Assembly (NCBI GenBank): GCA_015064485.1
Contig: SVSD01000002.1
Span: forward strand, 49,709-113,708
Direction of reading: 5' to 3'
DNA: 64,000 nt
Origin: Oscillospiraceae bacterium
GTDB taxonomy: Bacteria > Bacillota > Clostridia > Oscillospirales > CAG-382
Shown: in pieces, positions 31,486-64,000 of the stretch
Position numbering within the stretch: the stretch's first letter is position 1
How the letters are laid out: each line of letters starts with the position of its first letter
The notes under the pieces: generated by a model
The model's input: only the letters and a program-made list of their open reading frames with translations
What the model was told of the DNA's origin: nothing
Databases searched by the model: none
Program-made: the position numbers and the translations under genes

Positions 31486-31838
31486 CCATTACCGAACCAG
31501 GCGATCGTGCGACTGCAGGCGAAAGCAGCAGCGTAAGGAAAGTCCGGGCTTCGCAGAGCAGGATAACGGATAACGTCCGCCGAGGGTAACCTTAGGGAAA
31601 GTGCAACAGAAAATTACCGCCCGTCAACGGGTAAGGATGAAAAGGCGAGGTAAGAGCTCACCGACATGATGGAGACACCGTGTGCCGTGTAAACCCTATC
31701 CGAAGCAACACCTTGCGGGAGAGCATTTAGCTATGCTTGCTCGGCAGAAATCCCCATGGTGGCAAAGAGCTTTGCAGCAATGTAAAGACAAGATAGATGA
31801 CCGCCCACGACAGAACCCGGCTTACGGTTCGGTAATGC
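31486..31838 (+). ncRNA. rnpB: RNase P RNA
   Basis: Conserved GGAAAGTCCGGGC, ACAGAAAATTACCGCC, GTAAGAGCTCACC, AGATAGATGACCGCC, ACAGAACCCGGCTTA. P1 pairing ATTACCGAACC / GGTTCGGTAAT. Confidence 0.9.
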
Positions 31839-31859
31839 AGAAAGGAAAACAGCAAAATA

Positions 31860-35616: not shown

Positions 35617-35691
35617 GGCCCGTTGGTCAAGCGGCTAAGACGCCGCCCTCTCAAGGCGGAAACATGGGTTCGATTCCCGTACGGGTCACCA
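35617..35691 (+). tRNA. tRNA-Glu (anticodon CUC)
   Basis: Cloverleaf folded by hand: acceptor GGCCCGT/ACGGGTC, anticodon arm CCGCC-CTCTCAA-GGCGG, T-arm GGGTTCGATTCCC, encoded CCA. Confidence 0.85.
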
Positions 35692-35699
35692 AAAAAAGA

Positions 35700-35727
35700 A
35701 GTACACTTTTGTGTGCTTTTTTTTTTA
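35700..35727 (+). terminator. terminator after tRNA-Glu
   Basis: AGTACAC tttt GTGTGCT followed by T10. Confidence 0.75.
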
Positions 35728-35732
35728 TTTCT

Positions 35733-35836
35733 TCAGAGCGGGAATCGAACCCGAGAGGGCTTTTTGCGTAAAAGGGCGAAACCTTTTAACGAGTGATCAG
35801 TATGCGCAAAAGATGCGATTCCCGCACGGGTCACAA
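35733..35836. other. tRNA-derived fragments: inverted T-arm fragment and a direct copy of the tRNA-Glu 3' end
   Basis: TTCAGAGCGGGAATCGAACCCG (reverse complement of a T-arm plus acceptor 3' half). CGATTCCCGCACGGGTCAC at ~35815-35833 matches the tRNA-Glu 3' end at 18 of 19 positions. Confidence 0.6.
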
Positions 35837-52871: not shown

Positions 52872-53729
52872 TTATTTTTTGTCAAACAACTCACGGCGCT
52901 TCGACGAATGACGCATCATTTCTCTCATTCCGTCTATATCATCCGTTTCAAGCATACTTTTAAGTTCTCCGAATTTGTTTATAAACATATCCATCTGCTC
53001 GATCAAAACATCCTTGTTTGCCACAAAAAGTTCGCTCCACATAAGGTCGTTTATTCTCGCAATACGGGTAAGGTCACGGAACGAGTCGCCTGTAAACTTC
53101 TCCATATCTTCCTTGTCGTTGCAAGTCATAAGGGTTATTGCAATACAGTGCGTGAGCTGAGAAAGGAAGCCTATCATTTCATCGTGTTCTTCGGGAGAAA
53201 GCGTTGTAACATTTGAAAAGCCGAGAAGTCTTCCAAGCTCCATACAGGTATTTATCGCCTCGGGAGTGTTTTTTTCTGTTGGTGTTACAATATAGTTTGC
53301 ACCTATAAACATCTTTTCCGTGCTGTTTTCAACACCTGAAACCTCACGCCCTGCCATCGGATGAGCAGGAATAAATTCTGCATCAGGGCGCAAAATATCC
53401 TGAATCTCATATACAATATTCCTTTTAACACCCGTAACATCCGTAATAAGCGCACCGCTTTTTAAAAGATGCTGGTTTTCCTTTATCCATTCTACAAAAA
53501 CATGAGGATAAAGGGCGAAAATAACAAGATCCGCCTCGCCGATTATCCTTTCGTCAAGGGTAGTTGAACCTTCATCAATCATTTTTTCTTTGATCGCATA
53601 ATCTATCGAGCTTTGCTCTTTTGTGATAGCACTTATATGGAAACCAAATCTCTTAAGCGCTTTTGCATAGCTGCCGCCGAGAAGTCCAAGACCTACTATC
53701 AATATTTTTTTACTTACATTTACAATCAT
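52872..53729 (-). CDS. tyrA: prephenate dehydrogenase
   Basis: 285 aa; N-terminal GLGLLGGS Rossmann motif; HPMAG motif. Confidence 0.85.
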   Translation of the reverse strand: MIVNVSKKILIVGLGLLGGSYAKALKRFGFHISAITKEQSSIDYAIKEKMIDEGSTTLDERIIGEADLVIFALYPHVFVEWIKENQHLLKSGALITDVTGVKRNIVYEIQDILRPDAEFIPAHPMAGREVSGVENSTEKMFIGANYIVTPTEKNTPEAINTCMELGRLLGFSNVTTLSPEEHDEMIGFLSQLTHCIAITLMTCNDKEDMEKFTGDSFRDLTRIARINDLMWSELFVANKDVLIEQMDMFINKFGELKSMLETDDIDGMREMMRHSSKRRELFDKK

Positions 53730-54928
53730 TCTGTTTCAACCTCAGCACCAAGTGCTTTTATATCATCAAAAAATGCGGGATAGCTTTTTTTCACCGCTTC
53801 AATACCATCAATTTTGCCGCCCAATTTTGAAAGTATCAACGAAAGAGCCATAACGATTCTGTGATCGTTGTGACCGTCAAGGGCGACTCCGTTATACTTA
53901 AGCTCTGTTTTCGGCACAGTTATCATATTGTCTCCGAAAACAAGTCCGCCGCCAAGCTTCTCAAGCTCTTTGTGCATCACAAAACCTCTGTCGCTTTCCT
54001 TTGCCTTTAATCTGTCGGTTCCCGTAAACACTGCGCCGTTTTTCAGCGATGCAAGTGCAAAAAGTATGGGCCCGAGATCCGGACAATCGGAAATGTCAAG
54101 GGTAGGCGTTCCCTTTGCGATCTTGTCAAAATAATCGGAATAAACCCTGTCGCCTTGAAGGCTGTCGGGCTTTAAACCGGTAATTTCAACTTCCGATCCG
54201 ATATAATTGAAAGAATCAAGAAAAGCCGCGTTTGAATAATCTCCTTCAACCTTTCCGGAGAAGGAATGCATCTTGGAATTTCTTATAACAATATTATATT
54301 CGTCTTCAAATTCAACATCCGCGCCAAAAGACCTTAACGCACCTATTGTAAGATCAACATAAGATCTGCTTTCAAACGGAGGGGTTATTTCAATATGAGA
54401 TGTTCCGCCAAGATATACAAGAGCGAAAATAAGTCCTGTAATAAATTGACTGCTTATATCCCCTCTTATTTTAAAATTCCCGCTTTTAAGTTTTCCCAAA
54501 AGGGTTACGGAATTTGCGTTTTTTTCAAATCTGAAGTTTTTTTCACGGCATAATTCCTCATAAACATCAAGCGGTCTTTCTAAAAGTCTGTCACTTCCTT
54601 TAAGTACGGTTTCCTTACCGGTACATAAAGCAAGAGGAATAAAAAATCTCAGTGTACTTCCGCTTTCCCGACATTCAAGAACGCCTTTTTCGGGGTTTAT
54701 AAAGTTTTGTCCGTTTACGGTAACAGTATTTTCGTCGGTATCGATAAAACAGCCCAAAGCCCTAAGGCAATCTATTGTTGCAAGAATGTCTTCGCTGTAA
54801 TCGACACCTTCAAGCACACATTTTTTCTTTGACAAGGCGCTTGATATGAGATATCTGTGCGCCATACTTTTCGAAGGAGGCGCACTTATTTTCCCGCATA
54901 AACTACACGGTTTGAATTCTGCTGTCAT
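53726..54928 (-). CDS. aroA: 3-phosphoshikimate 1-carboxyvinyltransferase (EPSP synthase)
   Basis: 400 aa; PPSKSMAHR, LERP, DHRIVMA motifs. Confidence 0.9.
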   Translation of the reverse strand: MTAEFKPCSLCGKISAPPSKSMAHRYLISSALSKKKCVLEGVDYSEDILATIDCLRALGCFIDTDENTVTVNGQNFINPEKGVLECRESGSTLRFFIPLALCTGKETVLKGSDRLLERPLDVYEELCREKNFRFEKNANSVTLLGKLKSGNFKIRGDISSQFITGLIFALVYLGGTSHIEITPPFESRSYVDLTIGALRSFGADVEFEDEYNIVIRNSKMHSFSGKVEGDYSNAAFLDSFNYIGSEVEITGLKPDSLQGDRVYSDYFDKIAKGTPTLDISDCPDLGPILFALASLKNGAVFTGTDRLKAKESDRGFVMHKELEKLGGGLVFGDNMITVPKTELKYNGVALDGHNDHRIVMALSLILSKLGGKIDGIEAVKKSYPAFFDDIKALGAEVETE

Positions 54929-54949
54929 TTCAGTTGTCCTCTTAAGTCC

Positions 54950-56047
54950 TTATATAAGCCAATCTGTTCCGAATCTTGCAGAAAGTGCGTCGCAAATAAC
55001 GATTGCAGACGCCGCATCCTGAACAACTCTTGCTCTGTGAACGATTGCGGGATCGTGTCTTCCTTTCGGTTCAAGCACCGTTTCGCACATATTTACGAAA
55101 TCTACCGTTTCCTGGGGTTTGAAAATGGTTGGTGTAGGCTTTATGGCGGTTCTAAATATGATTGGCATACCGTTTGTAATACCGCCGTTAATACCGCCGT
55201 TGTTGTTTTTCAAAGTTATAATTTTGCCGTCTTTTATTCTCATCGGGTCGTTTGCAAAACTTCCCTTCATATCGGCAATTTCAAAACCCGCACCAAACTC
55301 AACACCTTTAACCGCAGGGATTGAAAACATCATATGGGAAAGAAGACTTTCGATCGAGTCAAAAAACGGCTCGCCCACTCCTTGCGGCATACCGATAATC
55401 GCAGTTTCAAGAACTCCGCCGACGCTGTCGCCGTCTTCTGCCGCCTCAAGAATTGCCGATGTCATTTCCTCTTCGGTTTTATCATCAAGAACAGCAAAAG
55501 TCTTGCCGTTTAAAGCCTTGATGTCGCAAAAAATATCATCAAAATTTCTGTCGGAAATCCCGGCGCATTTTTTTATGTGTGTTCCGATATATATACCTTT
55601 TTTCTCAAGCGCAAGTTTGCATATTGCACCAGCTGCAGTAAGCGCCGCTGTAATTCTTCCGCTGAAATGTCCTCCGCCCCTTGAGTCCTGGAAGCCGTGA
55701 TATTTGCACTGTGCCGTAAAATCAGCGTGAGAAGGACGGGCAACTGTTCTCATCTGAGAATAATCGCCGCTTTTGACATTTTCGTTGGGGATAAGTATAG
55801 TGATAGGCGTACCTGTCGTCTTGCCGTTTAAAACACCGCTTACGATTTTAAATTCGTCTTTTTCTTTTCTCGGTGTGGAGATTTTACCGTCGGGACGGCG
55901 GAGAGTCAGCATATGCGAAATATATTCAAAATCAACATCAATCCCCGGCGCCATACCATCAAGCACCGCACCTATATATTCGCCGTGACTTTCTCCGAAT
56001 ATCGTAACAGATATACTGTTTCCAAATGTGTTTTTCATCAGTTTCAA
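54950..56047 (-). CDS. aroC: chorismate synthase
   Basis: 365 aa; FGESHG, RPSHADF, GRHDP motifs. Confidence 0.95.
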   Translation of the reverse strand: MKLMKNTFGNSISVTIFGESHGEYIGAVLDGMAPGIDVDFEYISHMLTLRRPDGKISTPRKEKDEFKIVSGVLNGKTTGTPITILIPNENVKSGDYSQMRTVARPSHADFTAQCKYHGFQDSRGGGHFSGRITAALTAAGAICKLALEKKGIYIGTHIKKCAGISDRNFDDIFCDIKALNGKTFAVLDDKTEEEMTSAILEAAEDGDSVGGVLETAIIGMPQGVGEPFFDSIESLLSHMMFSIPAVKGVEFGAGFEIADMKGSFANDPMRIKDGKIITLKNNNGGINGGITNGMPIIFRTAIKPTPTIFKPQETVDFVNMCETVLEPKGRHDPAIVHRARVVQDAASAIVICDALSARFGTDWLI

Positions 56048-57057
56048 CCTTTCAGACAGTTTTTTGCCATATCAATGACTTCCGAACAGCTCATCTTCTT
56101 AAGTTCATACTGTCCGATTTCGTGTACAAGAGTAACTGTTACATTTTCACCATCCGCTTTTTTATCGTGAAAAGCAGCCTTTTCTATCTTATCCCAATCA
56201 AACTCTATCATATTGTAAAGCGAGCATTTTTTAAGCACTTCAATTACTCTTCCCCTTATCTTTTCATCACACATCGGTATAATTCCAAGGGCAACACATT
56301 CTCCGTGGTAAAGGCCGTGCATATTTTCGCTGCTTTCAATACCGTGACCTATCGTATGCCCGAAATTGAGTATCTTCCGAAGGGAAGCTTCTTTTTCGTC
56401 CTTTTCAACAACGCTTTTTTTGATATTTAAAGAGCGGATTATTATTTCATCAATGTTTTCTTTGATATTCCCGTTTTCAAATATTTCAAACAGCTTTTCA
56501 TCGGAAGTAAGAGCCATCTTTACAGCTTCGGCAAGACCGTTTGCAATTTGCCTTTCGGGAAGAGTTTTCAAAAGTTCCGGATCTATCAAAACTCTTTTGG
56601 GCTGATAAAATGCGCCGACTATATTTTTCATTCCGCCGAAATTTATAGCAGTTTTCCCGCCGATGGACGAATCTATCTGCGAAAGAAGTGTTGTTGGGAT
56701 ATTGTAAAAATCGATCCCCCTCATATAAGCGGATGCGGCAAACCCCGAAAGGTCGCCGACCACACCTCCGCCCACTGCGACAACACAATCATTTCTTGAA
56801 AAACCTTTTCGGAGCATAGTATTCAAAAGATGTCCGAACACATCAAGACTTTTTGATTGTTCCCCCATCTCAACAGTACATATCGTAGGCTCTTTGCATT
56901 GTTTTGCAAGTGTTTTTACATACTCTATCGGCACTCCAGAATCGGTTACGATAAGCACTCGCCTTTGAAGATTGAGATTTTCTTTTGCACTTTCAAGAAT
57001 TCCTCTTTCAACGATTATATCGTAGGAATTCTCAGATAAGTTCATATTAATCGTCAT
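56044..57057 (-). CDS. aroB: 3-dehydroquinate synthase
   Basis: Start moved to MTINMNL (RBS AAAGGTGA); GGGVVGDLSGF, GHTIGHGIE motifs. Confidence 0.9.
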   Translation of the reverse strand: MTINMNLSENSYDIIVERGILESAKENLNLQRRVLIVTDSGVPIEYVKTLAKQCKEPTICTVEMGEQSKSLDVFGHLLNTMLRKGFSRNDCVVAVGGGVVGDLSGFAASAYMRGIDFYNIPTTLLSQIDSSIGGKTAINFGGMKNIVGAFYQPKRVLIDPELLKTLPERQIANGLAEAVKMALTSDEKLFEIFENGNIKENIDEIIIRSLNIKKSVVEKDEKEASLRKILNFGHTIGHGIESSENMHGLYHGECVALGIIPMCDEKIRGRVIEVLKKCSLYNMIEFDWDKIEKAAFHDKKADGENVTVTLVHEIGQYELKKMSCSEVIDMAKNCLKG

Positions 57058-57067
57058 TTTATCACCT

Positions 57068-58156
57068 TTATATTTCGGTGTGAGGAGCAAAAGTGCCTGC
57101 AACTTTAAGCTTATCACACACCTTGTTTAACTCATTTATCATAGCTTTGCCGTTTTCGGTTTCACTAGAACCGTCTGTTTCAACATAGAAATAATACTGC
57201 CATGAATGACGCTTTAGCGGTCTGCTTCTCAAAGCTGTCATATTATAGCCGTACTTTCCGATAATGCTTATTGCTTTTGCAAGAGAACCGGCTTCATTTT
57301 TTACCGCGAACATCAAAACCGAGTTTGAAAACGACTCTGTATTTATTTTAACCTTTGAAAGTACAGCAAAGCGTGTTGTATTTTCACTGCTTTTGTTGAT
57401 ATTTGCTTCAAGCACTTTAAGGCCGTAGATGTTTGCTGTTTCAACACTCGCAATCGCCCCCAAAGTCTTATCTCCAGACTGCTCTACCGCCTTTGCCGCA
57501 AGCGCTGTGTTTGTAGATTCTTCGGTTTCAAAACCGCGCAGTTTTATATATTCGTGGCATTGACCGAGCGCCTGCGGATGGCTTATAACCTTTTTGATAT
57601 CGTCAACACAAGAACCGGGAAGTCCGAGAAGATTTTGATGAATTTCAAGCTCGTATATTCCGTTTATAAAGAGTCCGCCCGCAAAGATAAGATCTATCGT
57701 CTGTCCCACTTCGCCTGCATAACTGTTTTCGATCGGAAGTACCGCAACATCACACTCGCCTCTTACAACAGAATCATACGCAGCTCTGAAATCTGTATAT
57801 GAGATTCTGTCACTTTCGGGGAATATCTTGCCCGCCGCAATATGTGCAAAAGCACCGGGAACTCCGCTGTATGCAACCTTAAGACCGTTTTGCATACGGT
57901 ATTGATACGCTCTTGACACAGACATAACATTTTTTAAAAAACCGATATAATAGTCTTTTAAAACCTCGTCTTTTATTAAGGCTGAGTTTTTTTCTATTAC
58001 CTCAGCTTCCCTTTTTTCGTCAAGAATAGGAAGACCAAACTCTTTTTTATGCTCGTATACAAGCTCTGCCGCTTTCATCCTTTTTTCAAACAACTGCGCC
58101 ATCTGCGTGTCTACTTCATTTATAATCTTTCTTGCTTCTTCAAGCTTATTAGACAT
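57068..58156 (-). CDS. pheA: bifunctional chorismate mutase / prephenate dehydratase
   Basis: 362 aa; N-terminal CM helices, central PDT domain (TRF, ESRP-like LRSRP), C-terminal ACT. Confidence 0.85.
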   Translation of the reverse strand: MSNKLEEARKIINEVDTQMAQLFEKRMKAAELVYEHKKEFGLPILDEKREAEVIEKNSALIKDEVLKDYYIGFLKNVMSVSRAYQYRMQNGLKVAYSGVPGAFAHIAAGKIFPESDRISYTDFRAAYDSVVRGECDVAVLPIENSYAGEVGQTIDLIFAGGLFINGIYELEIHQNLLGLPGSCVDDIKKVISHPQALGQCHEYIKLRGFETEESTNTALAAKAVEQSGDKTLGAIASVETANIYGLKVLEANINKSSENTTRFAVLSKVKINTESFSNSVLMFAVKNEAGSLAKAISIIGKYGYNMTALRSRPLKRHSWQYYFYVETDGSSETENGKAMINELNKVCDKLKVAGTFAPHTEI

Positions 58157-58194
58157 CTCAAAAATTCCTTTCCCGAAATACAGGCATCTGTTTT

Positions 58195-59223
58195 TTAAAG
58201 TTTTTCGGCAATATCAAGAATTAACTTTTCGGTCTTTTCCCAGCCAAGGCAAGGATCGGTTATGGATTTTCCGAAAATATGCTCTCCTGTCCCTTGCGCT
58301 CCGTCTTCAAGATAGCTTTCGATCATAAGTCCCTTAACAAGGTTCTTGATATCGGAGTTCTGATTGCGGCTGTGAACGATATCTTTTGAGATACGAACCT
58401 GTTCAAGGTACTTTTTACCCGAATTATTATGGTTTGTATCAACAATTACAGAAGGATTTACAAGATTTGACTTTTCATAAAGTTCTCTTACTTTCAAGAG
58501 GTCTTCGTAATGGTAGTTTGATGCGCTCTTTCCCGCATAATCAACATATCCTCTCAAAATTGCGTGTGCATAAGGATTTCCTTGGCTTGTTACTTCCCAT
58601 CCTCTGTAAATAAATGTATGGCTGGACTGAGCCGCAACGATGGAATTCATCATAACTGAAAGATCTCCGCCTGTCGGGTTCTTCATACCGACAGGAGCAT
58701 CAATTCCGCTCGCGGTAAGTCTGTGTTGCTGATTTTCAACCGAACGGGCACCGATTGCAACATACGAAAGAAGATCCGAAAGGTAACGGTAATTTTCCGG
58801 GTAAAGCATTTCATCGGCGCAGGAAAAATCATAGTCGCGCAATGCGGCAAGATGAAGCTGGCGGATAGCAACAACGCCCTTATACATATCAGGTTTTGCT
58901 TCCGGGTCGGGTTGGTGAAGCATCCCTTTATATCCCTGTCCTGTTGTTCTGGGTTTGTTTGTATAGATTCTCGGGATAATGATTATCTTGTCGGATACCT
59001 GTTCTTCTATCCTGCGAAGCCTTGAAATATATTCAAGCACAGGCTCGCTGTGGTCTGCGGAACAAGGGCCTATTACAAGAATGAATTTATCGGATTTTCC
59101 TTCAAATACTGCTTTTATGCTCTCATCTCTTTTGGCTTTTACCTGCTCCATACGCTCTGTAAGCGGAAATTCCGCCTTTACATCCTTGGGAATGGGGAGT
59201 TTTCTATGGAAATTCATTTGCAT
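58195..59223 (-). CDS. aroF: 3-deoxy-7-phosphoheptulonate (DAHP) synthase, class I
   Basis: 342 aa; VIGPCS, KPRT, GARS..Q.HR, DTNHNNS motifs. Confidence 0.9.
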   Translation of the reverse strand: MQMNFHRKLPIPKDVKAEFPLTERMEQVKAKRDESIKAVFEGKSDKFILVIGPCSADHSEPVLEYISRLRRIEEQVSDKIIIIPRIYTNKPRTTGQGYKGMLHQPDPEAKPDMYKGVVAIRQLHLAALRDYDFSCADEMLYPENYRYLSDLLSYVAIGARSVENQQHRLTASGIDAPVGMKNPTGGDLSVMMNSIVAAQSSHTFIYRGWEVTSQGNPYAHAILRGYVDYAGKSASNYHYEDLLKVRELYEKSNLVNPSVIVDTNHNNSGKKYLEQVRISKDIVHSRNQNSDIKNLVKGLMIESYLEDGAQGTGEHIFGKSITDPCLGWEKTEKLILDIAEKL

Positions 59224-59254
59224 TTTTCTATACCTCTTTTTTTAATGTTTTTAT

Positions 59255-59307
59255 ATAAAACACAAGTCCGCATTTCATTATAGCTTTAAGCACAACGACT
59301 GCGGACT
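59255..59307 (-). terminator. attenuator terminator in the aro operon leader
   Basis: RNA AGUCCGCA (59300-59307) ... UGCGGACU (59265-59272) followed by UGUGUUUUAUAU, 40 nt upstream of the aroF start. Confidence 0.55.
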
Positions 59308-59347
59308 GTCCGTATTGTCTTCATCCTGATATTTTATATACCGGATG

Positions 59348-59407
59348 TTATACAAAAGGGCAGTCTTTTTTAAAATAATAATAAAAATAATAAAACTTAT
59401 TTGTCAT
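59348..59407 (-). CDS. aromatic leader peptide MTNKFYYFYYYFKKDCPFV
   Basis: My own codon-by-codon translation; RBS GGAGGGG 9-10 nt upstream; eight consecutive Phe/Tyr codons; below the ORF-track cutoff. Confidence 0.6.
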   Translation of the reverse strand: MTNKFYYFYYYFKKDCPFV

Positions 59408-59509
59408 AATTACTGCCCCTCCTTTTTTGTAAAATATAATATGTGGTGTGCCGAATTATAATTAAATTTTCAGGCAGTAAAGTGTCTTTCAACGCTTTCC
59501 GCCGCAAAA

Positions 59510-59938
59510 TCAAAGTTTGCAGATATCTGCAAGTGTGATAAGCTTAAACCCTGCATTAACAAGTAATGATTCAGCCTCTTCATTATCTTCAACACGAAGT
59601 ACAACATATGCGTGTTTTTCAGTTCTTGCCATAAAAGCATAAAGATATTCAACATTGATGTTCGCTTTATCGAGTACATCAAGAGCTGATGTAAGCTTAC
59701 CCGGTTCATCATTGATCTTAACGCCTACAACATCAACGGTTTTGATAAGATAGTCATCTTTGAGAAGTGCTTCTGCCGCTTCTATATCATTTACGATAAG
59801 TCTGAGTATTCCGAAATCCTGTGTTTCGGCAATAGAAAGGGCTCTTAAATTTATACCGTTTTTAGAAAGAATATCGGTTACCGAAACAACGGAACCTTTC
59901 TGGTTGGGAAGAAAAACTGTCAACTGTTTGATTGCCAT
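59510..59938 (-). CDS. ACT domain-containing protein
   Basis: 142 aa, two ACT-like halves (LTVFLPNQKGSV..., VVGVKINDEPGKL...); commonly paired with PaaK-like ligases. Confidence 0.75.
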   Translation of the reverse strand: MAIKQLTVFLPNQKGSVVSVTDILSKNGINLRALSIAETQDFGILRLIVNDIEAAEALLKDDYLIKTVDVVGVKINDEPGKLTSALDVLDKANINVEYLYAFMARTEKHAYVVLRVEDNEEAESLLVNAGFKLITLADICKL

Positions 59939-59957
59939 AATCCTGCTCCTTTCAAAT

Positions 59958-61265
59958 TTATATCAACTTACGCTTATCAACAACACGCACAGCCTTGCCT
60001 TCGCTTCTTGCAATAGTTTTAGGAGCTACGAGATGAACTGTGGGGTTGATTCCGAGCATTATCTTCATAGCGTTTGCAAGAGCTTTTTCCATCGCAAGAA
60101 CTTCGCTTACTTTATCTGTGAAGCGCTCGTGTGTCATTTCAACTAAAACATCGAATGTATCATTATTATTCTTTCTGTCTACAACGATCTGATAGTTGGG
60201 CTCATAGCCTTCTTTGAGAAGAACGGTTTCTATCTGGCTGGGGAATACATTTACGCCTCTTATAATGAGCATATCGTCTGTTCTGCCCATAGGCTTTGCC
60301 ATCTTTATAAGAGTTCTTCCGCAAGAGCATTTTTTGCGGGAAAGAACGCAGATATCACGGGTACGGTATCTTAAAAGAGGGAAGGCTTCCTTGTCAAGAG
60401 ATGTGAATACAAGCTCGCCCTTCTCTCCTTCGGGAAGAACTTCTCCTGTATCGGGATCAATTATTTCCGCATAGAAATGGTCTTCGTTTATATGCATACC
60501 GGTCTGTTCCGAACATTCGAATGCCACACCGGGGCCTGTTGTTTCTGTAAGACCGTAGATATCGTATGCTTTGATACCTAATGTTGATTCAATACCTTTA
60601 CGCATTTCCTCGGTCCAGGGTTCTGCACCGAAAATACCTGCTTTGAGCGGAATATCTTCGGGTTTATAGCCTTGTTCCTTTAGAGATTCGCCGATATATG
60701 CAGCATACGAAGGAGTACAGCACAAAATAGTCGCTTTAAGGTCCATCATAAACTGTACCTGTCGCTCGGTGTTTCCGGAGGACATAGGGAGTGTTAAGCA
60801 TCCAACTTTGTGAGAACCGCCGTTTAAGCCAAAACCGCCTGTGAAAAGGCCGTATCCGTATGCCACCTGACATACATCCTTATTTGTGCCGCCTGCGGCA
60901 ACAACTGCTCTTGCACAGCAATCTTCCCAAAGGTCTACATCGTTTTGTGTATAGAAAGCTACAACTCTTCTTCCGGTTGTTCCTGAAGTTGAATGAATTC
61001 TCACACAATCTTCAAGCGGCTTTGCAAGAAGTCCGTAAGGATATGCATCACGAAGGTCTGCTTTGGTAAGGAAAGGAAGCTTATGAAGATCTTCAATTCC
61101 ATTTATATCTTCGGGTTTAACGCCCTTTTCATCCATAAGATTGCGGTAATAGGAAACATTCTCGTAAACATGTTTTACTTGTTTTACAAGCTTTTCCGAC
61201 TGAAGCTTTTTGATCTCTTCAACCGGCATCGTTTCAATTTCTTTCTGATAGTAATTTTCCATCAT
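59958..61265 (-). CDS. paaK: phenylacetate--CoA ligase family protein
   Basis: 435 aa; SSGTTG, YGLTE, and PaaK-type C-terminus GRTDDMLIIRGVNVFP. Confidence 0.85.
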   Translation of the reverse strand: MMENYYQKEIETMPVEEIKKLQSEKLVKQVKHVYENVSYYRNLMDEKGVKPEDINGIEDLHKLPFLTKADLRDAYPYGLLAKPLEDCVRIHSTSGTTGRRVVAFYTQNDVDLWEDCCARAVVAAGGTNKDVCQVAYGYGLFTGGFGLNGGSHKVGCLTLPMSSGNTERQVQFMMDLKATILCCTPSYAAYIGESLKEQGYKPEDIPLKAGIFGAEPWTEEMRKGIESTLGIKAYDIYGLTETTGPGVAFECSEQTGMHINEDHFYAEIIDPDTGEVLPEGEKGELVFTSLDKEAFPLLRYRTRDICVLSRKKCSCGRTLIKMAKPMGRTDDMLIIRGVNVFPSQIETVLLKEGYEPNYQIVVDRKNNNDTFDVLVEMTHERFTDKVSEVLAMEKALANAMKIMLGINPTVHLVAPKTIARSEGKAVRVVDKRKLI

Positions 61266-61338: not shown

Positions 61339-61618
61339 AAAAAAAGCCCTCTGCATTCCAAATTAAGAATACAGAGGACGAAAATATCATTTCCGTGGTA
61401 CCACCTCAGTTCGCCGTCATCTCACGATAACGACCTTTTCAGGTACTGACATACCTTAGTTCTGTCACGGGAACACCCGTTGCATCCTACTTGAAAAATT
61501 TCGTTCAGCGCACTGCTAACAGAAGGAATTCAAAATGGTAGTCCCTGTTGCCTTGCACCGACCGGCAACTCTCTTCTTCGGGCATTTCCAAATTTACTGA
61601 TTTCTGCTCATCGCATTT
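61339..61618 (-). promoter_or_regulatory. T-box riboswitch leader (probable Phe UUC specifier) with terminator
   Basis: Stem I GCGAUGAGCAGAAAUCAGUA, AGAGAG box, distal GGUGCAAGG, specifier loop GAA-UUC-C, T-box GAGGUGGUACCACGG, terminator CCUCUGUAUUC...GAAUGCAGAGG plus U7. Confidence 0.8.
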
Positions 61619-61662
61619 AAGTATTAAAGCAAATAAATAAAACCTTGCTTTATTTGATATTT

Positions 61663-61735: not shown

Positions 61736-64000
61736 TCAGTCTTTTTTAAGTCCGAGCTTTTCAGCCGATATGTCACGCATTTTGTATTTGAGTATCTTTC
61801 CTGCGGCATTCATCGGAAATTCATCAACAAACATAAAGTATCTGGGAACCTTGTGTCTTGCGATGGACGCATTGCCGTATTCGCGCATTTCGGTTTCATC
61901 TGCTGTTTCCCCTTTATGAAGGATTATCCAGGCACAGCATTCTTCGCCGTATCTTTCATCGGAACACCCACAACCTGAACATCCCGCACTTTTGGGTTTG
62001 TAAGATAGAATTCTTCTATCTCTCTCGGATAAAGGTTTTCACCGCCTCGGATTATCATATCCTTAAGACGGCCTGTTACTTTATAATACCCGTCGGGAGT
62101 TCTCATACATATATCACCCGAATGGAGCCAGCCGTCTTTGTCGATAGCCTGTGCTGTCGCCTCGGGCATTTTGTAATAGCCTTTCATAATATTAAATCCG
62201 CGGGCTACAAACTCTCCGCTTTCGCCGTCGGGAAGTTCTTCCCCTGTTTCCGGATCGATTATCTTACATTCAACACCCGGGAAAGCGCTTCCTACAGTTT
62301 CAACTCTGTGATCGAGGTCTTCGTTAACTTCACCCATCGTACATCCGGGGGATGCTTCTGTCTGACCGTAAACCGAGATTATTTCGCGCATATTCATCTC
62401 AACCGATGCTCTTCTCATCAGGTCCGCAGGGCAGTTTGCACCCGCCATAATACCGGTTCTCATATATGAAAAATCCGTTTTTGCAAAATCCGGATGATTA
62501 AACATAGCGATAAACATTGTGGGAACACCGTTAAAACAAGTAATATGTTCATCATTTACACACGCAAGCGAGGATTTCGGCGAAAAATACGGAATAGGAC
62601 AAAGCGTACCGCCGTGAGTCATCATAGATGTCATAGAAAGCACCATTCCGAAGCAATGGAACATCGGAACCTGAATCATCATACGGTCAGCCGTTGACAG
62701 ATCCATTCTGTCGCCTATTGTCTTACCGTTATTTACAATGTTTCTGTGGGTAAGCATAACACCTTTCGGAAAACCTGTTGTTCCCGATGTGTACTGCATA
62801 TTGCATACATCGTCAGGTCTTACAAGAGAGGCCCTTCTTCTTACTTCCTCGCGGGGGATAAGGGATGAGCGGGAAAGCATCTGCTCCCAGTCAAGACATC
62901 CGTCCATCGAAAAGCCTACCGTTACGACATTGCGAAGGAAGGGAAGATTTTTAGAATATAATGGTTTTCCGGGTTCAAGAGTTTTAAGCTCAGGGCAAAG
63001 CTGTTCAATTATTTCTTTATAATTGATATCCTTGCAGTATTCGATCATTACAAGTGTGTGAGTATCGGACTGCTTCAAAAGATATTCGATCTCGTGAATT
63101 TTGTATGCAGTATTCACTGTAACAAGAACGGCACCGATTTTTGTTGTTGCCCAGAAAGTTATATACCACTGGGGTACATTTGTAGCCCATACGGCAACAT
63201 GATCGCCCGCCTTAACGCCAAGTGAAATAAGCGCTGCCGCACATTCGTCAACATCGCGGCGGAACTGTTCGTAGGTTCTTGTATAGTCAAGAGTAGGATA
63301 TTTAAATGCATACTGATCGGGATATTTCTCCGCCATTGTATCAAGCACCTGAGAGAAAGTTACATCAATTACATCATACTTTTTCCATACGAATGTACCT
63401 GTCTTATCTCTGTTGTAATAGGCCTTGTCAAAGGATTTCTTATCCCTGTTAAGTCCCGATATATAGTTTGCAAAATGAGTAAGAACAATATCCGCATCGG
63501 ATATTTCCTCATTCCACGCCGCACATATATAGCCTTCATAATTGAGGGATGAAAGCGCACCTAAAAGCTTTTCAACTTCGAGTTCACCTTCGCCGATAAG
63601 AACTGTCTTTCCGTCTTTCATATCGCCAAGACGCACATATTTTATGTATGCGCCGAGGGTTTTTATTGTTGTTTCGGAAGTTTCTCCTGCGTCGAAATAT
63701 GTACCTCTCACATTCCACGAAGCACCGATTGCGGCAGAAGATAAATGATTGATTATTTCAATAACATTTTCTGTGTTTGCAAGGAAGCCTACGGTTTCAA
63801 GTAAAATGGAAACATCCGCAATCTCCGCTTTCTTTATTGCAGCCGAGAGCTTTTCGTCAATAACATCAACCGAAATTTCCTTGTCGATTCTGACTATAAC
63901 ATTCGATATTCCCGATGCCTGCGCCATATCAACATATTTGAGAACAAGCTCTTTTGTTGTGTTTTCGCTGTCGATTCCCTCAGGCATACGAAGAGCGGAA
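61736..64000 (-). pseudogene. TIM-barrel (xylose-isomerase-like) / AMP-dependent acyl-CoA synthetase fusion gene, interrupted by a 1-nt frameshift near 61958-61961; 5' end outside window
   Basis: The track ORF 61924-63987 ends ...VQVVGVPMKDTAKNAVPG*. The conserved C-terminus DERYGEECCAWIILHKGE...PRYFMFVDEFPMNAAGKILKYKMR...KKD* continues in another frame to 61736. Upstream motifs: YTSGTTGFPKGV, GYGQTE. Confidence 0.65.

Follow-up and report, generated by a model that had tools for sequence, protein, structure and literature searches.

Upstream of the aromatic amino acid biosynthesis operon aroF-pheA-aroB-aroC-aroA-tyrA, a 64,000-nucleotide stretch of DNA from an Oscillospiraceae bacterium (contig SVSD01000002.1, positions 49,709 to 113,708; the whole stretch is called the window below) carries a short leader, in which an open reading frame (ORF) with eight consecutive phenylalanine (Phe, F) and tyrosine (Tyr, Y) codons is combined with RNA segments that can pair in alternative ways. 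We propose, at a probability of about 0.85, that this leader is a ribosome-mediated leader-peptide transcription attenuator which senses charged tRNA-Phe and tRNA-Tyr and controls the aro operon. The proposal is carried by what we observe directly: the sequence elements are present and conserved, the run bears a codon signature, the alternative pairings exclude each other, and in relatives a Phe T-box takes the place of the leader.

The aro leader of the window

The leader ORF consists of 19 codons and a stop codon (product MTNKFYYFYYYFKKDCPFV*) and is preceded by a Shine-Dalgarno (SD) sequence, GGAGGGG (59422-59416; all window coordinates of the attenuator and the aro genes refer to the minus strand), the GGAGG of which is located 8 nt upstream of the ORF. 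Codons 5-12 form an unbroken run of TTT/TAT codons, encoding F Y Y F Y Y Y F, and this is the single F/Y run of at least eight codons in a six-frame translation of the 64 kb window. A spacer of 124 nt separates the stop codon of the leader from the ATG of the DAHP synthase gene (59223). In these points the original prediction, which had placed a 19-codon F/Y-rich leader with a ribosome-binding site at 59407-59348, about 125 nt upstream of an aro operon, proved accurate, and all six genes of the operon were identified by Pfam (Table 1). The operon carries both pheA and tyrA, i.e. the pathways of both leader amino acids. A profile built from the elements of other species only matched the window at 59427..59239 with E = 6.8e-30 and found no second match in the 64 kb. 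A second F/Y run of the window, at 35717-35734 on the plus strand, is a T tract behind a tRNA gene and was rejected as a leader.

The 227-nt leader shows a fold z-score of -5.2 relative to shuffled sequences. Hereafter, the segments that exchange partners are called regions 1 to 3. The core of region 2, GACUGCCC (59365-59358), can pair with GGGGCAGU of region 1 at -17.4 kcal/mol (RNAduplex), and this helix 1:2 is also found in the minimum free energy fold. The same core can pair with GG-A-CAGUC (59311-59303) of region 3 through 5+2 bp with one C.A mismatch at -9.9 kcal/mol; the whole antiterminator domain, including UUGU/ACAA and a nested hairpin (59347-59322), reaches -20.8 kcal/mol. Region 3 overlaps the 5' arm of a terminator, whose stem is formed by AGUCCGCA (59307-59300) and UGCGGACU (59272-59265), followed by UGUGUUUUAU (59264-59255), and which folds at -21.3 to -21.5 kcal/mol when its inner stem is included. 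The antiterminator fold removes the five terminator base pairs adjoining the U tract, which makes the two pairings mutually exclusive. If region 1 is excluded, the nascent window RNA, now without its upstream arm, folds into the proposed antiterminator. Thus, the hairpin at 59255-59307 that had been described as terminator-like does fold (about -21 kcal/mol) and has a U-rich tail, and both pairings suggested for the 3' end of the leader ORF, with 59303-59311 and with the segment next to the ribosome-binding site, are recovered at the energies given above.

Conservation and codon use of the leader family

A scan for the DAHP synthase with one genome per species yielded 80 loci, in which the enzyme is 86-93% identical to that of the window. 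The loci stem from metagenome-assembled genomes (MAGs), for the most part of ruminant gut, that bear the labels Oscillospiraceae, Acutalibacteraceae, Ruminococcaceae or Clostridia; the DAHP synthase protein of the window is itself deposited under a 'Ruminococcaceae bacterium' MAG, and the relatives listed by a protein search with it are close ones, with identities of 88% or more. The complete element, which comprises leader ORF, SD, F/Y run, terminator and the two competing pairings, was found at 59 of these 80 loci, with orthologous leader ORFs of 17-27 codons that have an SD and an ATG, in genomes spanning 33-58% GC. Its order is promoter, region 1, ATG, 5-8 Phe/Tyr codons, region 2, hairpin, region 3 and terminator. 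The promoter of the homologous loci, TTGACA-17-TGnTATAAT, is strong and lies about 25 nt upstream of the SD. Region 1 (CACAAAGGAGGCAGC) includes the SD, region 2 (GGGCUGCCCGUCUUUUGUG) begins with GGGCUGCCCG, and region 3 (ACAAAAUACGGACAGUCC) contains a nearly invariant ACGGACAGUCC motif, while the variable hairpin between regions 2 and 3 usually carries the stop codon in its loop. The terminators have a mean energy of -20.2 kcal/mol and UUUUUAUUUU tails. When metagenomes were scanned with the region 2/region 3 pattern, 21 further copies were found on about 19 contigs, all of them low in GC and all with an F/Y run; roughly 100 chance matches to the same pattern in high-GC (soil) contigs, none of which contains an F/Y run, serve as a negative control. 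Wherever the downstream DNA suffices, the homologous attenuators precede the same DAHP synthase, in one case as tyrA-DAHP synthase.

The codon use of the run bears the mark of translation. Across the family the run comprises 223 Phe and 192 Tyr codons, with T in 93% of first positions, T (49%) or A (47%) in second positions and T (70%) or C (26%) in third positions. The changes within the run are synonymous T<->C exchanges and F<->Y exchanges and almost nothing else, which yields a 3-nt period. The SD is located 5-11 nt before the ATG in most loci, and the distance from ATG to region 2 varies between 30 and 45 nt, yet the frame is kept in 55 of 56 loci. Judging from these patterns, the cluster of F/Y codons appears to be maintained by selection. 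Quite another constraint is seen at the codons for G/D-C-P in region 2, which are nearly invariant even at synonymous sites (GGC 43/43, GAC 10/10, TGC 51 vs TGT 4, CCG 49 vs CCT 2). As the wobble sites are frozen, the peptide motif 'KGCPSFV' has to be attributed to RNA structure and not to protein function, and thus provides an example of a 'conserved micropeptide' part that is really conservation of RNA structure. This observation bears on the alternative that the ORF encodes a functional aromatic-rich micropeptide, the hairpins merely ending its small transcript and any effect on the aro genes being incidental. We consider this very improbable: while a motif F/Y run-x-K-G-C-P-S-F-V seems to be conserved at the amino-acid level, the frozen G-C-P codons pair with two other conserved RNA segments, and the C-terminal tail differs between family members in both length and sequence and is cut short in the window. 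Moreover, the element is always found immediately before the aro operon and oriented like it, no second promoter being visible; a Phe T-box can take its place, and gene callers almost never report the leader (three database proteins, see below).

The helices were assessed by counting pairs in an alignment made without reference to any structure, with controls in which the partners were slid. Paired cells amount to 82% for the antiterminator with its nested hairpin (best slid control 48%), 69% for helix 1:2 (52%) and 81% for the terminator (52%). Homologues of helix 1:2 occur in most family members, with a mean of -19 kcal/mol. The core helix of the antiterminator is paired to 93%, and nine of the 11 core positions of region 3 have a region 2 partner in 89% or more of the sequences. 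The nested hairpin covaries, with changes on both sides at all five core pairs and an energy of -8.9 kcal/mol for cognate arms versus -4.7 kcal/mol for non-cognate ones. In the terminator nine pairs have changed on both sides, which was matched by 2 of 500 shuffles. By the test of cognate versus non-cognate arms, however, covariation is found for the nested hairpin only, helices 1:2 and 2:3 and the terminator being conserved mainly as sequence. Of the comparative check proposed along with the original prediction, conservation (59/80) and covariation of the nested hairpin and the terminator came out in its favour, but covariation is sparse for regions 2 and 3. With RNAalifold on a MAFFT alignment, no more than helix 2:3 and the base of the terminator emerged, because the variable parts were out of register; this method was replaced by per-sequence duplex folds and explicit pair counting.

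The architecture of the loci shows some variation. The gene order behind the attenuator varies: in L049 (-1230 to -1000 before aroF) it heads tyrA-aroF, L058 deviates as well, and other loci have aroF-pheA-tyrA, or aroF-tyrA without pheA; despite this variation the attenuator stands at the operon head. Ten species (L002, L006, L013, L043, L063, L064, L069, L071, L072 and L078) carry two attenuators in tandem, located some 90-330 nt before the start of the DAHP synthase gene, and tandem pairs are also found in the metagenome loci L081 and L090. Each tandem copy is complete in having a leader ORF, regions 2 and 3 and a terminator. The helix 1:2 predicted to sequester the SD is confined to the copy nearer the promoter and is lacking in the one nearer aroF (-2.5 to -8.5 kcal/mol). 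To our knowledge, tandem leader-peptide attenuators have not been reported before.

Among the 21 loci that are without the element, a T-box lies directly upstream of aroF in seven (at about 100-350 nt; L008, L011, L047, L050, L052, L075 and L076), and aroF is fused behind a T-box-paaK-ACT operon in nine (L003, L005, L009, L012, L024, L031, L041, L066 and L080). One locus contains a decayed leader (L070, -190 to -120 before aroF), in which the SD, the ORF and region 2-like and terminator-like parts are kept and the run is degraded to QFTFIF, and one contains a relic (L079, -110 to -30), in which region 3 and the terminator alone are left, abutting the end of the upstream gene. The specifier is GAA-UUC-A (Phe) in the four alignments inspected, two per type (L008 and L050, L012 and L003). 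A Phe T-box before the same operon in sister species implies that the operon is controlled there through the charging of tRNA-Phe, and the replacement of the leader by the T-box is, as read from these loci, a recent switch between sensing systems. The relatives thus offer a natural experiment, in which DAHP synthases at least 86% identical stand behind a single leader, tandem leaders or a Phe T-box, and such mixed operon heads make a direct comparison of translation-coupled and tRNA-binding sensors possible. L075 also carries a Gut-1 RNA (RF01706, 2980-3065 (-), 51.2 bits, just over the gathering threshold), on the opposite strand, some 900 nt behind the DAHP synthase gene.

The window itself contains a T-box (Rfam, 106.7 bits) about 2 kb upstream of the aro leader, with a specifier loop GAA-UUC-C that is presumably Phe-specific. 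It stands ahead of genes for a paaK-like AMP-ligase (phenylacetate-CoA ligase family) and an ACT-pair protein, and this gene pair lies directly upstream of the aro leader. As the T-box operon adjoins the leader, two different Phe sensors would stand side by side. The layout of T-box-paaK-ACT followed by leader-aroF recurs in L053; in L017 paaK-ACT likewise lies upstream of the leader, and the locus ends short of any T-box position. Further upstream in the window, a 687-aa ORF combines a weak, sub-gathering N-terminal xylose-isomerase-like TIM barrel (AP_endonuc_2) with an AMP-binding enzyme domain and has a clean terminator behind it.

This neighbourhood suggests another explanation, according to which the output of the leader is translational, or its hairpin is the terminator of the upstream T-box-paaK-ACT operon, with the ORF being a chance product of an AT-rich spacer. 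The window promoter is weak, so that some transcription of aroF may start upstream, and TTT/TAT codons arise easily in AT-rich DNA. On the other hand, the SD of aroF (59236-59233) is located 20-30 nt past the U tract, outside every conserved helix, and most family members have a strong promoter of their own before the leader and no paaK-ACT upstream. Furthermore, six reading frames of the window contain only one long F/Y run, and the conservation of the leader across genomes of such different GC content excludes a compositional artefact. We therefore regard this explanation as extremely improbable.

Table 1. Coordinates of the aro leader, the aro operon and further features in the window
Feature	Coordinates	Strand	Basis or description
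Candidate -10 box of the leader promoter, TATAAT	59455..59460	-	Sequence; alternative TATTAT 59436-59441; -35 weak
Region 1, 5' arm of helix 1:2 (putative anti-antiterminator)	59412..59440	-	Holds SD GGAGG 59422-59418 and GGGGCAGU 59419-59412
Leader ORF, MTNKFYYFYYYFKKDCPFV*	59348..59407	-	Sequence and orthologous ORFs
Putative regulatory Phe/Tyr codons	59372..59395	-	Sequence
Region 2, GACUGCCC + UUUUGU, codons D-C-P-F-V	59352..59365	-	Partner of region 1 or region 3
Nested hairpin CAUCCGG...UCAGGAUG, directly 3' of the stop codon	59322..59347	-	RNA folds
Region 3, ACAA-U-ACGGACAGUCC, antiterminator 3' arm, overlaps terminator 5' arm	59303..59318	-	Pairing and conservation
Predicted intrinsic terminator with inner stem and U-rich tail	59255..59307	-	Stem 59307-59265, tail UGUGUUUUAU 59264-59255
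aro operon, aroF-pheA-aroB-aroC-aroA-tyrA	52872..59223	-	Pfam
DAHP synthase (aroF)	58195-59223	-	Pfam
Chorismate mutase-prephenate dehydratase (pheA)	57068-58156	-	Pfam
DHQ synthase (aroB)	56044-57117	-	Pfam
Chorismate synthase (aroC)	54950-56047	-	Pfam
EPSP synthase (aroA)	53726-54928	-	Pfam
Prephenate dehydrogenase (tyrA)	52872-53729	-	Pfam
ACT-pair protein	59510-59938	-	
paaK-like AMP-ligase	59958-61265	-	
T-box	61371-61620	-	Rfam
Terminator behind the 687-aa ORF	~61720-61690		
687-aa ORF	61924-63987	-	
tRNA	35617-35688	+	Rfam
Bacterial RNase P class A RNA	31489-31839	+	Rfam, 246.5 bits

Proposed mechanism

In the mechanism that we propose, transcription would start just upstream of the leader SD, and region 2 would choose between region 1, which holds the leader's own SD, and region 3, with which the 5' arm of the terminator starts. 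When Phe or Tyr is scarce, a ribosome would stall in the eight-codon F/Y run, that is in the loop between regions 1 and 2, and would keep helix 1:2 open and region 2 free. Free region 2 would then pair with region 3 once the latter is made, with the nested hairpin as a cap, and the terminator, now lacking the 5 bp at the U tract, would let RNA polymerase enter aroF. When both amino acids are plentiful, the ribosome would reach the stop codon (59350-59348) and cover region 2, the region 3:4 pairing would form, and transcription would end near 59255-59264. If the leader is not translated at all, helix 1:2 would sequester the SD and the terminator would be free to form. Leader translation, stalling, termination at the hairpin and the response to Phe and Tyr are thus predicted steps. 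In its central point this scheme agrees with the original prediction, namely that a stall in the F/Y run would free region 2 to act as an antiterminator; the presence of the element in 59 of 80 species, the codon signature, three helices in register and the fold obtained without region 1 all argue for it.

Several points weigh against this proposal. The stop codon of most relatives is located some 30 nt downstream of region 2. The idea that a ribosome at the stop codon masks region 2, likewise part of the original prediction, therefore holds literally for the window, but simple masking does not explain the family. Equilibrium folds always favour helix 1:2 together with the terminator, even with the F/Y run masked, and hence the antiterminated state requires that the ribosome act kinetically and sterically, as is assumed here. 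In the full leader this state is 3 kcal/mol less stable than the terminator state, and masking the nucleotides of a stalled ribosome alone yields no antiterminator at equilibrium, for which region 1 must be excluded. Two-sided changes in helix 2:3 are found at 2 of 10 pairs, and its cognate arms do no better than non-cognate ones; since regions 2 and 3 are almost invariant, the support for this helix is mainly conservation. The window copy, moreover, is the weakest of the family and somewhat degenerate: its antiterminator core of 5+2 bp has -9.9 kcal/mol as compared to a family mean of -15.7 kcal/mol, its U tract is interrupted (UGUGUUUUAU), and its promoter is poorly defined. As this promoter is poorer than those of the homologous loci, the assignment of the -10 box is tentative. 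The leader ORF of the window is also shorter than in the family. Finally, the host organisms are uncultured MAGs, and the function is read from sequence.

Some of these points would also fit a small ORF that is not translated, the choice between terminator and antiterminator being made by a factor, a protein or a tRNA, that binds to the U/A-rich triplet tract or to the conserved GGGCUGCCCG / ACGGACAGUCC boxes. Regions 2 and 3 are kept as sequence and not by covariation, as is often the case for protein-binding sites, TRAP, PyrR-like proteins and T-boxes are common in Firmicutes, and the equilibrium folds give no antiterminator without an extra factor. Against a factor of this kind stand a conserved SD and ATG at proper spacing, the position of region 2 in frame in 55 of 56 loci together with the 3-nt period, and changes in the run that are only F<->Y or synonymous; in addition, Rfam finds neither a T-box nor any other family in the leader at E <= 10. 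Furthermore, regions 1 and 3 are both complementary to region 2, which explains why they are conserved. Taken together, we judge such a factor-dependent attenuator to be improbable.

Within the preferred reading, that of ribosome-mediated attenuation, the events in most relatives may differ from masking at the stop codon. There the ribosome more probably unwinds distal region 2 and the nested hairpin and parts regions 2 and 3 physically, whereupon region 1 would recapture region 2. Since the regulatory codons are located in the loop of helix 1:2 and not inside region 1, stalling would have to block this helix sterically. With the F/Y codons in the loop of helix 1:2 and the stop codon in the loop of the nested hairpin, the position of the ribosome would decide which of the two loops closes. 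It is conceivable, though we regard it as rather doubtful, that the family represents a distinct subclass of leader attenuators, where the ribosome works as a steric wedge and does not mask region 1 or 2, Phe and Tyr signals are integrated, leader translation is limited to one round, and repeated swaps with Phe T-boxes have occurred among close gut Clostridia. If the notion of a steric wedge holds true, the tandem duplication found in some species could sharpen the response.

Relation to known attenuators

None of the Rfam 15 leader families, including Phe_leader (RF01859), RF01743 and the His, Thr, Trp and Leu leaders, matched in a cmscan search of 58500-60500 at E <= 10, which returned spurious snoRNA, miRNA and CRISPR hits only. 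Rfam scans found no T-box (RF00230) in 59224-59510, and a scan of the window at gathering thresholds reported only RNase P, a tRNA and the T-box further upstream. Pfam and NCBIfam scans of four or five family leader peptides gave no match at E <= 10. A protein search with a 40-aa extended leader ORF retrieved three related proteins in 5.8 billion clusters, which indicates that gene callers almost never report the leader. The leader is hence an unannotated regulatory element that is absent from Rfam, Pfam and NCBIfam and is missed by the annotation pipelines used for gut MAGs.

The classical leader attenuators are those of Proteobacteria, such as pheL-pheA, pheM-pheST, trpL and hisL of E. coli, with Phe_leader (RF01859) as the corresponding Rfam entry. 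The present family resembles them in the short ORF rich in end-product codons, in the pairings 1:2, 2:3 and 3:4 with a U tract, and in the predicted termination before the first biosynthetic gene. It differs from them in that it resembles them neither in sequence nor in structure (Rfam gave no match at E <= 10), mixes Phe and Tyr codons in about equal numbers, places the regulatory codons in the loop of helix 1:2 and not inside region 1, has the leader's own SD in region 1, carries the stop codon in the loop of the antiterminator-nested hairpin in most members, and belongs to Clostridia (Ruminococcaceae/Oscillospirales).

Two systems before aroF come closest in gene context. In Corynebacterium glutamicum, the leader peptide aroR (F-Y-F) precedes a DAHP synthase-led aroF operon, and readthrough increases under Phe limitation; a passage of PMC11802643 that cites Neshat 2014 describes this actinobacterial leader as having three regulatory codons and as responding to Phe but not to Tyr. 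Like aroR, the present leader combines Phe and Tyr codons before aroF; unlike aroR, it has 5-8 F/Y codons and a different RNA. The second system is the uORFC-13-1 motif (Brewer et al. 2021, PMC8632094), a candidate attenuator of the uORF type that occurs solely ahead of aroF and has been described from Acholeplasma and from environmental DNA of unassigned origin. Its 24 representatives (seed A. laidlawii PG-8A) combine -35/-10 boxes, a ribosome-binding site and a start codon with a U-rich stretch that codes for 'at least one' Phe; an intrinsic terminator is adjacent, one further helix is conserved, and Tyr codons are not mentioned (PMC8632094). The Rfam scans gave no hit to it. Compared by description only, uORFC-13-1 and the present family share the association with aroF, the layout of promoter, ribosome-binding site and U-rich ORF, and the terminator. 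The present family may be the same as uORFC-13-1, related to it or independent of it. The RNase P RNA of the window is of class A, which fits Clostridia rather than Bacilli or Mollicutes and bears on any relation to the Acholeplasma element.

The general expectation of the original prediction, that Firmicutes usually regulate such pathways by T-boxes or TRAP, stands insofar as leader-peptide attenuation is rarer there than T-boxes, but it is already documented for His and Leu leaders. His leaders are known from the Bacillus cereus group, Peptostreptococcaceae and Erysipelotrichales (PMC2965389, PMC9413887), Staphylococcus aureus has a Leu-rich ilv-leu attenuator peptide (PMC5794164), and Lactococcus lactis has the Leu/phe leader RF01743 (PMC2864571). 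The family described here would share with these His and Leu leaders the classical ribosome-mediated attenuation in Firmicutes and the ability to replace T-boxes at syntenic positions. The known leaders, however, concern other amino acids and operons, or another lineage and RNA (RF01743), and none matches in sequence. With Phe T-boxes (RF00230) the family shares the same DAHP synthase operon in sister species, and by prediction also the reading of tRNA-Phe charging and the choice between terminator and antiterminator; a T-box, in contrast, binds uncharged tRNA directly, needs no translation and reads one tRNA only.

In conclusion, leader-peptide attenuation in Firmicutes is rare, yet precedented, and the present family is most probably an uncatalogued addition to the classical mechanism. 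By its predicted structures its anatomy is unusual, with the SD sequestered in helix 1:2 and duplicated attenuators in tandem in ten species. Aromatic amino acid biosynthesis would thus join the short list of Firmicute pathways under classical ribosome-mediated attenuation, in a group of Ruminococcaceae/Oscillospirales from ruminants and the gut that is large, abundant and uncultured.

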